NCBI GenBank assembly: GCA_016716835.1
Contig: JADJUW010000003.1
Span: 48,534 to 112,533, forward strand
Length of the DNA stretch: 64,000 nt
Direction of reading: 5' to 3'
From: Myxococcales bacterium
Lineage (GTDB): Bacteria > Myxococcota_A > Polyangia > Haliangiales > Haliangiaceae
Program-made: the position numbers and the translations under genes
Shown: piece after piece, positions 20,621-24,136 of the stretch
How positions within the stretch are numbered: position 1 is the stretch's first letter
Layout of the letters: every line of letters starts with the position of its first letter
The notes under the pieces: generated by a model
Seen by the model: the letters and a program-made list of their open reading frames with translations, nothing else
Database searches by the model: none
Told to the model about the DNA's origin: nothing

Positions 20621-21388
20621 CTAGCAGACGCGCCCCGACAAGATAGCAAGCGGCATGCGAACCGAGATGGGTTCGTTCTCGTCGATTTTGGCAACCGCTC
20701 GTGCGAGTAGGTCATCGACAGCGGCCGAGACATCCGCGTTTTGGCGGCTCACTTTATAGGCCGACCACGTCATTAAATACTCGGCGAGTTGTTGCGACGA
20801 CAACTCTAGTTCGATCGCGAAGGCCGGCGCGCTTACGTGTGGGAACGGGCAGCCGACGGCGGCTGATTGATAGCCGTCCCACAACAGGCGATTATTTTCT
20901 GCCCAGTAGGGTTCAACCAGCGCGCGAAATGGCGCGACTAGCGCTTTATCGATGGCTGGCGAAACGTGCGGCCAGGCATAACCGAAGGCGCAAAAAAAGG
21001 CGCCCGGTGCGGCAACGCGCCTGACCTCTTGCCAGAACGCATTCGTAGCAAACCAATGCAGTGCCTGCGCGACCACAATGAGATCTGTTTGATGCGCGGG
21101 GAGGCCACACGCCTCGGCACTGGCGACGCGGTACTCAACGTTTGCGAGCTGCGCCGCTTGTTCAATTTGGGCCGCACTAACATCTGTCGCGATGACGCGC
21201 TCAAAGTACGGCGCTATGCCAACCGCTGCCTGGCCATTTCCGGTGGCGCAATCCCATGCGGCTACCTTGCGGCTACACTGTGAGGCGAGCCAATGGAACA
21301 GCGGCTCGGGGTATCTCGGTCGCGCCCGCGCGTACGACGCCGAGGCTTCCGAAAACGTGTTGCGCGGTGACGTCATGAGGGGCACCAA
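20621..21388 (-). CDS. Class I SAM-dependent methyltransferase
   Basis: Motif I 'VAAWDCATGNGQAAV', motif post-I 'VIATDVS' and 'LIVVAQALHWF' indicate a Methyltransf_11-like fold. Confidence 0.85.
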   Translation of the reverse strand: MVPLMTSPRNTFSEASASYARARPRYPEPLFHWLASQCSRKVAAWDCATGNGQAAVGIAPYFERVIATDVSAAQIEQAAQLANVEYRVASAEACGLPAHQTDLIVVAQALHWFATNAFWQEVRRVAAPGAFFCAFGYAWPHVSPAIDKALVAPFRALVEPYWAENNRLLWDGYQSAAVGCPFPHVSAPAFAIELELSSQQLAEYLMTWSAYKVSRQNADVSAAVDDLLARAVAKIDENEPISVRMPLAILSGRVC

Positions 21389-21414
21389 GCATATACCGTC
21401 GTAAGCGCGCGCAT

Positions 21415-21443
21415 AAAAAAAGGGCGACCTTGCGGCCGCCCTT
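21415..21443 (-). terminator. Rho-independent terminator (minus strand)
   Basis: Minus-strand RNA reads AAGGGCG-G-CC-GCAA-GG-U-CGCCCUU followed by U7 (plus-strand A-run 21415-21421). It is preceded by a second hairpin GCGCC-GUAA-GGCGC (21456-21469). Confidence 0.65.
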
Positions 21444-21715
21444 GCGAAGACTCTTGCGCCTTACGGCGCGGTTAGGAGGAAGTTAGAAAATGCCCTCCGA
21501 CACGAGTACTTCCGATTGACGTACGTTCTGTTTACAGTGCATGTTGCGTCTTCCTCCTCTAGCAAATGGCCAGAGCCTGGCGGCGGCCCGCGCAAAATGT
21601 CGCGGCTCCCACAACCAGGCCTTCACATTGGGCGCATCGGCCCGTGGCGACGGCACGTCATCACGTGAATCATCATTAACCCATCCGCTTAGTGCCGCCG
21701 GCAACCACATGGTGC
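21415..21715 (-). ncRNA. Candidate structured RNA / leader transcript of unknown class, containing a 19-codon mini-ORF at 21483-21542
   Basis: Bounded by the promoter and terminator above. Third-position GC is much lower than in neighbouring genes. Nested helices include GCCUGG...CCAGGC, CCGCG-acauuuug-CGCGG and CACGU-gaug-ACGUG. A 9-bp SD/anti-SD pairing AGGAGGAAG (21558-21550) / CUUCCUCCU (21482-21474) is also present. Confidence 0.35.
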
Positions 21716-21721
21716 ATCTCA

Positions 21722-21751
21722 AGTATATGGCACGCGATCTGCGGTTCGCAA
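21722..21751 (-). promoter_or_regulatory. Candidate sigma70-type promoter (minus strand)
   Basis: On the minus strand: TTGCGA (21751-21746), an 18-nt spacer, then TATACT (21727-21722). It lies in an AT-richer stretch facing the terminator about 300 nt away. Confidence 0.4.
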
Positions 21752-21830
21752 GATTACATAATCAACAAAGATTCCAAACGGTTAGGTAGGTGCGTGCGCC
21801 CAGGTGTGGCACTTTGTGGTAGGAGAGCGC

Positions 21831-22205
21831 ATGTCCACCAGGCCGCAAGCCTCGCTTGAAACCTTTCCCAACCCCAAAGCGACGCGCGATTACCACATCG
21901 TGTTTGATTGCCCGGAGTTTACTTGTCTTTGTCCGCTTACCGGACAGCCGGATTTTGCGACGATCGCCATCGACTATGTGCCCGACGCCCTGTGCATCGA
22001 GCTCAAGTCGCTCAAGCTCTATCTGTGGAGCTATCGCGACCAGGGCGCGTTTCACGAGGCCGTGACCAACAAGATTTGCGACGACATCGTCGCCGCCATC
22101 GCGCCACGCAGCGTCACCGTCACCGGCAAGTTCTGGGTGCGCGGCGGCATCGCGACCAATGTCATCGTGACGCACACCGCGGGTAGCGCCCAGGGACGCG
22201 GCTAA
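21831..22205 (+). CDS. queF: NADPH-dependent 7-cyano-7-deazaguanine (preQ0) reductase, type I
   Basis: '[25 protein letters not shown]' and '[13 protein letters not shown]' are QueF signatures. ATG 21831 is preceded by 'GGTAGGAGAG'. Confidence 0.92.
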
Positions 22206-22208
22206 GGC

Positions 22209-22988
22209 ATGGCGACCGAGCATCCGGCGGCGCCAACCTTGGCCACACTCGATGGCGTCGTCGTGCACTACGGCCGCCGCCTCGCGGTCGACCAGCTCTC
22301 GCTGCGGATTTGCGGCGGCGAGCGGATCGCGCTGCTTGGCGCCAATGGCGCGGGCAAGACCACGACGCTGCTCGCCTTGACCGGCGGCGTGGCGCCCTCG
22401 GCGGGCACCGTCAACGTCATGGGAGGCGAGATGGCCGGCCGCGGCCGCGCCGCCACCAGCGTGCGGCATCTCGCCCACGTCGGGTTTGCTGACCAGCCGC
22501 CATCGCTTTACGAATTTTTGACCGTCACCGAGCACGTGCGATTTGTCGCCGAAACCAGGGGCCTGCCCGACAATAGCGAAACCACGCAGGTCGTGGCCGC
22601 ACTGCTCGCCGATCTCGGGATTGAGCCGTACGCGCATCGCCCGTGCCGCGAGCTTTCTTTCGGGCTTCGCCAGCGCGTCTCGCTCGCGGCGGCATTGGTT
22701 GGTCCGGTCAAGCTGCTGTTGCTTGATGAAAGCGTCAACGGCCTCGATCCGCACGCGATGAAGCGCGCCCTGCACGCGGTGATGCGCCAGGCCTCGGCGC
22801 CCGACACCGCGCTCATTTTTTCGACGCATATGCTCGAGCTGGCCGAAGAAATTTGCACGCGCGCCATCATGATGGAAGACGGCAAGCTGATTGCGGACAT
22901 GTCGCGCGAGACGTGGCAGCTCACGTACGGAAATTTGCGCGCGGCGTACGTCGCGCATGTCGCCGACGGCAAGGCGCGCGAGGCGTGA
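22209..22988 (+). CDS. ABC transporter ATP-binding protein
   Basis: Walker A 'GANGAGKTT', signature 'LSFGLRQRVSLAAAL', Walker B 'LLLLDES'. Confidence 0.9.
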   Translation: MATEHPAAPTLATLDGVVVHYGRRLAVDQLSLRICGGERIALLGANGAGKTTTLLALTGGVAPSAGTVNVMGGEMAGRGRAATSVRHLAHVGFADQPPSLYEFLTVTEHVRFVAETRGLPDNSETTQVVAALLADLGIEPYAHRPCRELSFGLRQRVSLAAALVGPVKLLLLDESVNGLDPHAMKRALHAVMRQASAPDTALIFSTHMLELAEEICTRAIMMEDGKLIADMSRETWQLTYGNLRAAYVAHVADGKAREA

Positions 22989-24136
22989 GCGACGCGGGCT
23001 TGCAGGTGCGTGTCGCGGGCCCCGCGGTGGCCACGATGGCATCATCCGCCTTTCGCCGCTGGATGCGTCTAGAGCACCACGCGCGGCGGCGTGGCGTTTG
23101 GTCGTGGTGGCTCATCGCCTGGGTCGGTGGTGGCGGCGCGCTGGCGGCGTACGCGGCGCGCCAGACGATGTGGCTCGTGCCATGGGGCGCGCTGGCGATT
23201 GCGATCGTCGGCGCGGTGGTGGCCGCGCCCTTTGCGATGTTTTGGCGGCGTGACGCGCGGCTGTGGCAACGGTTGGCCTTGCCCCAGCGCGGCATGTTCG
23301 ACGTCGCGTTGCTTCACCAGGCTCGGCGCAACGCGTGGTTGTTTGCGCCGGTGGTCTTGCTCGCCGCTCTGCAAAGGCAGCCATTTGCGCCGCTGCTCGC
23401 GACGCTTGCGGCCTACGCTTGGGTAACCGGCGCGGGCACGGCGGCGGTTTTTTTGGGCGGCCTGCTTGTTGCTAGCGACAAGACGCACGCGCTGGTCGAC
23501 ACCATGGCCGGCGAATTTCGCCCGCCACGTGTGGTGTGGCTCGGCGCCTTGCCCGCGGTGGTGGGCGGCGTCGCCTTGGCGGCGGTCTGGCTGCTGGGTG
23601 GCGGCGTCGCGCGTACACCCTTGCTGCTCGGCGCCATTGCGACGGTGCTCGCGTCGATCGTTCTCGTGTTGGTAGCGCGCGCCGCAAGCGCGCAGCATTT
23701 TTCGCGCGCGCTCACCGAGGTCGTTGCGCTCGATCGGCAATCGCTTGCGCATGTCGAAATTCAGCCAGTATCGCCAATCGAGGCGCTGTGGTGCCGGCTG
23801 TGGCCTGGCGCTCATGGGCCGCTTTGGCGCGTCACGTTTATGGTGTTGCGGCGACGCTTTCCAATGCGCGGGTTGTGGCTGGCCATCGGCATAGGCGCCG
23901 TCTTGGCCGCACCGTGGTTAGGCTGGCCGCGCTGGGCGGTGGCGACGGTTGCCGGCGTGGTGCTTGCCGCGCTTGACTACGCGCGCGTGAACAATCGCGA
24001 CGTCAAGATGCAGCGCCTTTCGGCGGTGCTCGGCGTCGCGGGTGCCGCCCGCATGGCAGGGCTCGCCGCGCTCGCGCTGCATCTACTGTTATTTTCGCTT
24101 GGCGCGGGCGCGGCGTTCGCGCTCGGCGCGCGCTAG
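22985..24136 (+). CDS. Polytopic membrane protein, putative permease partner of the ABC ATPase
   Basis: GTG 22985 overlaps the ATPase stop (GTGA). An alternative start is ATG 23036. At least 8 hydrophobic segments. No family motif recognised. Confidence 0.6.
   Translation: MSDAGLQVRVAGPAVATMASSAFRRWMRLEHHARRRGVWSWWLIAWVGGGGALAAYAARQTMWLVPWGALAIAIVGAVVAAPFAMFWRRDARLWQRLALPQRGMFDVALLHQARRNAWLFAPVVLLAALQRQPFAPLLATLAAYAWVTGAGTAAVFLGGLLVASDKTHALVDTMAGEFRPPRVVWLGALPAVVGGVALAAVWLLGGGVARTPLLLGAIATVLASIVLVLVARAASAQHFSRALTEVVALDRQSLAHVEIQPVSPIEALWCRLWPGAHGPLWRVTFMVLRRRFPMRGLWLAIGIGAVLAAPWLGWPRWAVATVAGVVLAALDYARVNNRDVKMQRLSAVLGVAGAARMAGLAALALHLLLFSLGAGAAFALGAR

Follow-up and report, generated by a model that had tools for sequence, protein, structure and literature searches.

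A 64,000-nucleotide stretch of DNA from a Myxococcales bacterium of the order Haliangiales (the window) carries on its minus strand, between positions 21751 and 21415, what we are highly confident is a genuine, conserved and structured RNA gene of a family that is not in Rfam. The element fills a 440-bp gap between a gene for a class I S-adenosylmethionine (SAM) methyltransferase and the divergent gene queF, and its RNA, about 300 nt long by sequence in the window and 300–390 nt in relatives, contains a Shine–Dalgarno (SD) sequence and a mini open reading frame (mini-ORF) within its fold. The RNA is most likely of the dual-function or riboswitch-like type. The specific reading that we favour, and to which we give about an even chance, is a free-standing regulatory RNA in which a helical junction controls access to the SD and in which transit and termination of the ribosome would remodel the 3′ domain, and hence the activity or stability of the RNA. 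An earlier sequence-only reading of this DNA had described the unit and offered an independent small RNA (sRNA) or dual-function RNA, a leader or attenuator of the methyltransferase and a type I toxin–antitoxin-like module as its possible identities; the observation is confirmed and the interpretation is partly supported.

A BLASTN comparison with relatives detected a core of about 110 nt (window positions 21645–21532) in three other genera. With a covariance model derived from four sequences (R1), 121 of the 138 genomes of the same GTDB family (Kofleriaceae, Haliangiales) each yield exactly one copy; the genomes with a match include 67 of the 73 that are of high quality and cover 13 of the 17 genera; the window's own genome likewise holds a single copy. 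A trimmed model built from 28 diverse members (R2) adds two genera, g6 and g13, and at E < 1e-6 reaches beyond the family to one genome of f4, a sister family in the order, three of f30 and one of f22, all of them other families of Polyangia, and no R2 match was obtained across approximately 394 other Myxococcota genomes; the E-values from both models are rough. The RNA is a single-copy, vertically inherited gene. In the alignment of 43 members, 97.6% of cells are paired in the modelled structure. The sequence-only reading had proposed an analysis of covariation, and over these members 17 of the 29 modelled pairs show changes on both sides, compared with two in every slid control, and none of 500 shuffles reaches the observed values. 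Two of the helices that it had noted, GCCUGG/CCAGGC and CCGCG/CGCGG, are genuine and show covariation among the relatives. For the 3′ domain and the 5′ hairpins, the reading comes from MAFFT/RNAalifold alignments of subgroups rather than from a formal covariation test. The predicted 309-nt transcript folds to −132.5 kcal/mol (z = −2.9), and none of 100 shuffles folds as well.

No known RNA accounts for the element. A cmscan search of positions 20800–22400 against Rfam 15 (E ≤ 10) returned only two chance matches, of 15.5 and 13.8 bits, in keeping with the earlier failure to recognize a known family by eye, and a search of 18 homologous loci (E ≤ 1) returned nothing recurrent at the element. 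The aptamer models for the 7-deazapurine preQ1 (riboswitch classes I–III) have no match in the window or in the homologous loci, and the class I preQ1 riboswitch (RF00522) has none in 31 related genomes. As to location, queF lies co-directionally downstream of the RNA only in genus g5 and is divergent in most other cases. ARAGORN detects no transfer RNA (tRNA) or transfer-messenger RNA (tmRNA) in the region. A divergent housekeeping RNA was considered and rejected, as 6S RNA, tmRNA, RNase P RNA and signal recognition particle (SRP) RNA all score above cut-off elsewhere in the genome (contig C1). Literature searches found no published description of the RNA.

Read along the minus strand from promoter to terminator, the element consists of the following parts, P0–P3 being the helices of a four-way junction common to the members.

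21722–21751, minus strand: sigma-70-like promoter, with a −35-like TTGCGA (21751–21746), an N18 spacer and a −10 TATACT (21727–21722); aligns with the promoter conserved in relatives
21653–21715, minus strand: 5′ domain, with a terminal hairpin GCCG/CGGC (about 21702–21694), a linker and the hairpin CACGU-GAUG-ACGUG (21667–21654)
21649–21652, minus strand: 5′ anti-SD strand of P0, CGUC here and CUUC or CCUC in relatives; its partner is GAGG at 21556–21553
21630–21643, minus strand: P1 hairpin GGGC-CGAUGC-GCCC; four of four pairs vary on both sides within the family and 98% of cells are paired
21574–21621, minus strand: P2 arm, GGCCUGGU (21621–21614) with GCCAGGCU (21581–21574); eight of eight pairs covary (e.g. 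GCCCAA/UUGGGC)
21559–21573, minus strand: P3 hairpin CUGGC-cauuu-GCUAG, running straight into the SD; 99.5% of cells are paired
21550–21559, minus strand: SD GAGGAGGAAG, with GGGGAGGAAG or GGGGAGGUG in relatives; GGAGG lies 9–12 nt ahead of the AUG in 56 of 56 members examined
21483–21542, minus strand: mini-ORF MHCKQNVRQSEVLVSEGIF, 19 codons plus TAA, with the ATG at 21542 and the TAA at 21485–21483
21474–21482, minus strand: post-stop anti-SD CUUCCUCCU (CTTCCTCCT), complementary to the SD (9/9 here) and to a GGAGG inside the mini-ORF
21450–21469, minus strand: GNRA-capped hairpin GCGCC-GUAA-GGCGC (21469–21456), followed by GAGU (21453–21450)
21415–21443, minus strand: intrinsic terminator, with a 10-bp stem (21443–21420), a 4-nt loop and U7 ending at 21415

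The promoter, the SD, the start and stop codons, the complementary post-stop segment, the GNRA hairpin and the U7 terminator all lie where the sequence-only reading had placed them. Transcription would start near 21715. The promoter of the relatives comprises a CTGGCN box and, about 17–18 bases later, TAnnnT, which stands 4–6 nt ahead of the 5′ hairpin; the window copy has CTTGCG in place of the box. The −35 element in loci L008–L057 and L213–L215, distant genera included, is this CTGGC(G/A/C) box and not a TTGACA-like hexamer; it is found about 45–30 nt upstream of the 5′ hairpin of the RNA, a position equivalent to 21751–21746 in the window. The conservation of the box suggests a dedicated regulator or sigma factor. 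The CTGGC motif is not enriched across the window (two found, 3.1 expected). A sigma-54 promoter (TGGCAC-N5-TTGC) was discarded, since the GG-to-GC spacing read from the sequences is wrong; nor does CTGGC serve generally as a promoter element across the window.

The first hairpin of the 5′ domain is lineage-specific in relatives (GCGAC/GUCGC, GCGGCC/GGCCGC or ACGGUC/GACCGU) and is followed by two more. The hairpin CACGU-gaug-ACGUG, which the sequence-only reading had also noticed, recurs there with other sequences, its counterpart being CACG/CGUG or CCGC/GUGG; it is in this domain that the window copy departs furthest from the other members. A T-box-like GGUGG was rejected: it belongs to a covarying hairpin, as the 3′ strand, and Rfam gives no T-box match. 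In the four-way junction the SD itself supplies one strand of the closing helix P0, which is paired in 94% of cells in the 43 sequences and has a G–G mismatch at one of its four pairs in the window. It is because the SD would form the closing helix of a conserved junction that the earlier riboswitch-like intuition fits the anatomy; a leader of the methyltransferase is not supported (see below). A CUUCG:CGAAG helix considered as a replacement for P0 is less conserved (81% compared with 94%) and may represent a competing state. Helix P2 encloses the invariant internal loop GGGAGCCGC...GCGGGCC, for which the family consensus is GGGA(G/A)CCGC...GCGGGCC with an invariant inner CCGC/GCGG, and the hairpin CCGCG-acauuuug-CGCGG (21605–21588); its apical part differs in length between genera. 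The P3 strands CUGGC/GCCAG are nearly invariant in all members.

Downstream of the mini-ORF, relatives carry CCUCC(C) 0–10 nt past the stop codon and a variable hairpin at the position of the GNRA hairpin. The GAGU at 21453–21450 can pair with an ACUC inside the mini-ORF (21507–21504). A helix between GCUC at codons 7–8 of the mini-ORF and GAGC just before the terminator is predicted from the alignment of genus g14, and pairs seen by eye at the same place are GUAGCC/GGCUAC in locus L021 and ACUC/GAGU in the window. The terminator is present in 42 of 42 homologues examined, 226–328 nt past the model start, and no alternative pairing for its arms was found in the alignments and consensus folds that were read.

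The SD is base-paired in 41 of the 42 minimum-energy folds of full-length members, and its partner is the post-stop CCUCC in 18 of these folds, the 5′ strand of P0 in eight and sequence within the mini-ORF in nine. The duplex between the SD and the post-stop segment is a perfect 9-mer in the window, where the inverted repeat was also recovered independently as a 23-nt arm pair with 74% complementarity and a perfect 9-nt core. The RNA thus holds two SD-like and two anti-SD-like elements that are able to swap partners, which is a hallmark of a switch.

Every member has both an SD, canonical in either of two variants (GGGGAGG followed by AAG or UG) and correctly spaced, and an AUG. From this AUG, frame 0 stays open for 13–19 codons in all 56 members, and frames +1 and +2 mostly close within 0–7 codons; the mini-ORF comprises 13 codons in five genera, 14–16 in others and 19 in the window. 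A second GGAGG (21498–21494 in the window) is located inside the mini-ORF, four to five codons ahead of the stop, and pairs with the CCUCC(C) beyond it, so that the stop codon sits inside a clamp hairpin. Of the 47 members that have a GAGG, 43 keep the GAG of the internal GGAGG in frame, at offsets of 24, 27, 30, 33 and 45 (27–45 across the ORF-length classes), and the distance from AUG to GGAGG has therefore changed only by multiples of three. The stop codon follows this SD-like GGAGG by 8 nt, a geometry that could hold a terminating ribosome. Stop codons in the 56 homologues are UAA (28), UAG (27) and UGA (one); of the 48 long ORFs in the window, 18 end in TGA.

The encoded peptides are hydrophilic, rich in Ser, Arg, Glu and Lys and devoid of a membrane segment, which extends to the family what the sequence-only reading had remarked of the window peptide. 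Their sequences are otherwise unrelated between genera; only a Glu (from the GAG of GGAGG) and a Ser (from GCUC) recur, and RNA pairing fixes both. Cys and His make up 5.9% and 5.6% of mini-ORF residues, compared with 1.3% and 2.1% in the proteins of the window. The Cys excess appears to stem from a nucleotide motif, ACAUG-N3-(A)UGU, able to form a start-codon hairpin; this was judged by eye, without a count, from the alignment of the ORF starts. The listed peptides show no codon repeated in tandem. A leader peptide that senses queuosine-modified tRNA was rejected, as the His, Asn, Asp and Tyr (NAY) codons are not enriched (12.6% of the ORFs, background 11.7%). With the frame conserved and the peptide sequence not, the passage of the ribosome, and not its product, is probably the selected feature; from the same comparisons we are fairly confident that the mini-ORF is translated. 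A nine-codon ORF on the plus strand, which had been noted as sharing the inverted repeat, was rejected: an SD and start codon on the opposite strand occur in only two of 42 homologues, and the ORF is a by-product of that repeat.

The genes that flank the element in the window are as follows.

20621–21388, minus strand: SAM methyltransferase, class I (Methyltransf_11, E = 2e-13)
21831–22205, plus strand: queF (PF14489, E = 1e-32)

The methyltransferase follows the RNA in this genome only: none of 49 related loci has it at the equivalent position, and it may have entered as an insertion specific to the lineage, placed between the RNA and the rpsU region. Of 50 Kofleriaceae loci, by comparison, 46 have queF next to the RNA, as does the f4 genome; queF is mostly in divergent orientation and about 110 nt from the model start. 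Genus g5 has queF downstream on the same strand, its start lying 20–40 nt past the U-tract in four loci (L020, L023, L027 and L030) and 45–200 nt past it in the others. When the flanks are compared, queF and the neighbour on the other side prove to have kept their orientation in g5, and the RNA cassette alone is inverted; the RNA therefore behaves as an autonomous gene and not as a leader. The conserved promoter motif and terminator, together with this inversion, are what would be expected of an independent transcription unit, and the earlier suggestion of an independent sRNA or dual-function RNA is borne out to the extent that promoter, terminator and structure are conserved and the cassette is kept in either orientation between the same neighbours.

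Past the terminator, most Kofleriaceae genera have a convergent gene, with a product ending in ...IFTF. This protein (820–1230 of L002, plus strand, and 29 other loci) has about 136 residues, with a ribbon–helix–helix-like N-terminus (RRSISVS...YEKLKAF...), a Pro-rich middle and a conserved C-terminal ...(Q/E)IFTF, and it has no Pfam match. It accompanies the queF–RNA pair in Kofleriaceae, switching side, and is absent from the window; in seven loci it lies beyond queF with the queF–RNA pair retained. In families f30 and f22, no queF is found within 2 kb of the RNA and the neighbours, named from their translated sequences and not by profile search, are wholly different: a hexapeptide-repeat acetyltransferase precedes the RNA, and DegT-type aminotransferase, Wzz-like or membrane genes follow it. 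The RNA in L208, L209, L211 and L212 of these families lies within a sugar-modification or polysaccharide cluster. The next gene begins 10–25 nt past the terminator in L211 and L212, and the downstream frame opens about 90 nt past it in L208. In the four g5 loci named above (at about 1745–1800), the 20–40 nt between the U-tract and the queF start leave no room for a conventional promoter and leader, and queF may there depend on terminator read-through or be nearly leaderless. The link to queF is a robust synteny within Haliangiales. As such it is a hint of common upstream control and does not count as evidence for a target in cis.

In the mechanism that we favour, the RNA's own promoter would drive transcription of the 5′ hairpin domain and then of the four-way junction closed by P0, in which the 5′ CUUC/CCUC pairs with the SD. 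The junction domain would act as the sensor of a small ligand, a protein or a folding pathway and so set the access to the SD. Once loaded, a ribosome would have to melt the helices embedded in the mini-ORF and would probably pause at the stop codon, given that the internal GGAGG, 8 nt upstream, offers the ribosome's anti-SD an initiation-like spacing. Such a ribosome could remodel the 3′ domain by freeing or occupying the CCUCC, and the remodelling could alter the activity or stability of the RNA as a trans-acting regulator. The act of translation, and not the sequence of the peptide, would be what counts, and queF would at most be co-regulated through the shared upstream region. A bolder version, which strikes us as doubtful, makes the junction the aptamer of a new riboswitch class housed in a free-standing sRNA with the translated mini-ORF as its platform, ligand binding gating the ribosome and the ribosome switching the trans-acting RNA. 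Because the queF neighbourhood persists, the ligand in this version may be a 7-deazapurine (preQ0 or preQ1), or else another metabolite.

Several observations weigh against the ribosome-remodelled RNA that we favour. The SD and anti-SD strands are so nearly invariant that covariation cannot tell which of the competing pairings forms. A specific pairing of the RNA with the translation start of queF was tried as a mode of action and dropped, its duplex energies being no better than those of shuffled controls. The co-directional genes 10–40 nt past the terminator in the window, g5 and f30 would fit regulation in cis at those loci. Finally, the mini-ORF is rich in codons that are rare in the genome (UGU, CGU and AAA), and the nucleotides that vary in it fall in unpaired linkers of the fold rather than at third codon positions, so that a purely non-coding RNA has to be entertained. 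In such an RNA the SD, AUG and ORF would go unused, and the G-rich and C-rich elements would serve as helices, or as SD and anti-SD mimics that bind a protein, 30S subunits or target messenger RNAs (mRNAs). Besides the codon usage and the pattern of variation, the lack of peptide conservation and the pairing of the SD in almost all predicted folds speak for it. We nevertheless hold it to be improbable, with a small but real chance of being right: the canonical SD is kept at the correct spacing in two forms, GGAGGAAG and GGAGGUG, frame 0 remains open in all 56 members, its stop lying within the clamp hairpin, and the indels between AUG and GGAGG come only in multiples of three. The opposite extreme, an mRNA for a functional peptide of 13–19 residues with elaborate regulatory untranslated regions, for example a Cys/His-containing small protein or a precursor, could draw on the conserved start signals and ORF length, on the surplus of Cys and His and on the precedents of SpfP and peTrpL, functional peptides of 14–15 residues encoded on sRNAs (PMC12612679). 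It is hard to reconcile with the recurrence of pairing-fixed residues alone, with Cys codons that by eye derive from the start-codon motif and with the absence of linked genes for modifying enzymes, and we rate it as very unlikely.

A leader acting in cis, as a riboswitch or as a leader-peptide attenuator, would work by terminator read-through into the methyltransferase in the window, into queF in g5 and into the DegT, Wzz or membrane genes in f30. Translational riboswitches classically have a junction that closes on an SD, and the window, the four g5 loci, L211 and L212 do have a co-directional gene 10–40 nt past the U-tract (about 90 nt in L208). In most Kofleriaceae genera, however, the next gene is convergent, and there is therefore nothing to regulate in cis. 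The downstream gene differs from lineage to lineage, the methyltransferase being peculiar to this genome; the strong terminator is universal (42 of 42), with no conserved alternative pairing of its arms in the alignments and consensus folds read; and the cassette is inverted in g5 between unchanged neighbours. We consider a leader unlikely, and the proposed leader or attenuator of the methyltransferase is not supported, on the same grounds. The reading as a type I toxin–antitoxin-like module, or as a mobile or repeat element, had in its favour that an ORF enclosed by an SD/anti-SD fold-back resembles hok-type mRNAs. It is effectively refuted by the hydrophilic, unconserved peptides without a membrane segment, by the lack of a conserved antisense unit (2 of 42) and by the single-copy occurrence of the RNA in its own genome and at a syntenic position across 15 genera.

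Among known systems, translational riboswitches and the Salmonella mgtA Mg2+ leader with mgtL are 5′ leaders of a defined gene and have known ligands. The RNA resembles them in having a multi-helix junction whose closing helix masks an SD, and then a short ORF, the translation of which would couple to downstream folding; it differs in being free-standing and terminated, with varying neighbours, and no Rfam riboswitch model matches it. The raiA motif, OLE, HEARO and ROOL are large orphan structured RNAs known from comparative genomics. Like them, the RNA is lineage-restricted and extensively covarying and has its own terminator; it is smaller than most of them, and we know of no conserved SD–AUG–stop unit inside the fold of any of the four. 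Spot 42 with SpfP (15 residues), SgrS with SgrT and RNAIII with delta-haemolysin likewise combine their own promoter and terminator with a tiny ORF that overlaps structured or regulatory regions, but the present RNA has a much more elaborate structure and lacks a conserved peptide. The peptides of the Spot 42, SgrS and RNAIII type have described activities (PMC12612679). The attenuator-derived, dual-function sRNA rnTrpL of E. coli and Sinorhizobium meliloti encodes the 14-residue peTrpL (PMC12612679). Its likeness to the RNA lies in a short terminated transcript (here predicted) with an SD, an ORF of about 14 codons and an intrinsic terminator; in rnTrpL, the position of the ribosome on the ORF interacts with the folding of the RNA, and the released RNA acts in trans. 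Whereas rnTrpL is the trpE leader, with tandem Trp codons and a terminator/antiterminator pair, most members of the present family have no downstream gene, no tandem regulatory codons were seen and no antiterminator appears in the folds read, and a large conserved junction precedes the ORF. By analogy, the RNA would act most like the attenuator-derived or dual-function sRNAs and the translational riboswitches, while having the defining features of none of these, and can best be classed as a structured sRNA that carries an embedded small ORF.

Hardly anything is known of RNA regulators in the order Haliangiales, and our literature searches found no study of one. The RNA would be the fifth near-universal structured RNA of the lineage, beside 6S RNA, tmRNA, RNase P RNA and SRP RNA. 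Its architecture unites a sensor-like junction, a ribosome-binding site and a mini-ORF that is conserved in frame, free in sequence and clamped by SD/anti-SD pairs. If translation does gate the RNA, it would be a compact natural ribosome-actuated RNA switch outside an mRNA leader, and also a good candidate for an orphan riboswitch; to our knowledge, a relay that runs from riboswitch to ribosome to sRNA has not been described for any bacterium. The genus Haliangium, which has cultured isolates, carries the RNA, and the proposal is thus testable.

Some minor points concern the reading frames around the element. The methyltransferase start had been given as an ATG at 21388; the codon there is TTG, and an ATG first occurs in that frame at 21376. 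The third-position GC content (GC3) of the element region had been described as far below that of its neighbours: it is indeed lower, with corrected values of 0.59 for the element region, 0.67 for the methyltransferase and 0.78 for queF. The methyltransferase gene (20621–21388, minus strand) itself has a lower GC3 than queF and stands in a stretch of 57–62% GC. The mini-ORF doubles as the tail of a 79-residue ORF with a TTG start (21722–21483), which was rejected as a real gene: the frame is closed 1–7 codons upstream of the AUG in six homologues and is hence not conserved. Two open frames of 427 codons, at 21762–23045 on the minus strand and 22853–24136 on the plus strand, run antisense to queF, an ABC-transporter ATPase gene and their neighbours; both resemble the spurious long frames that GC-rich DNA typically contains, and not genes.

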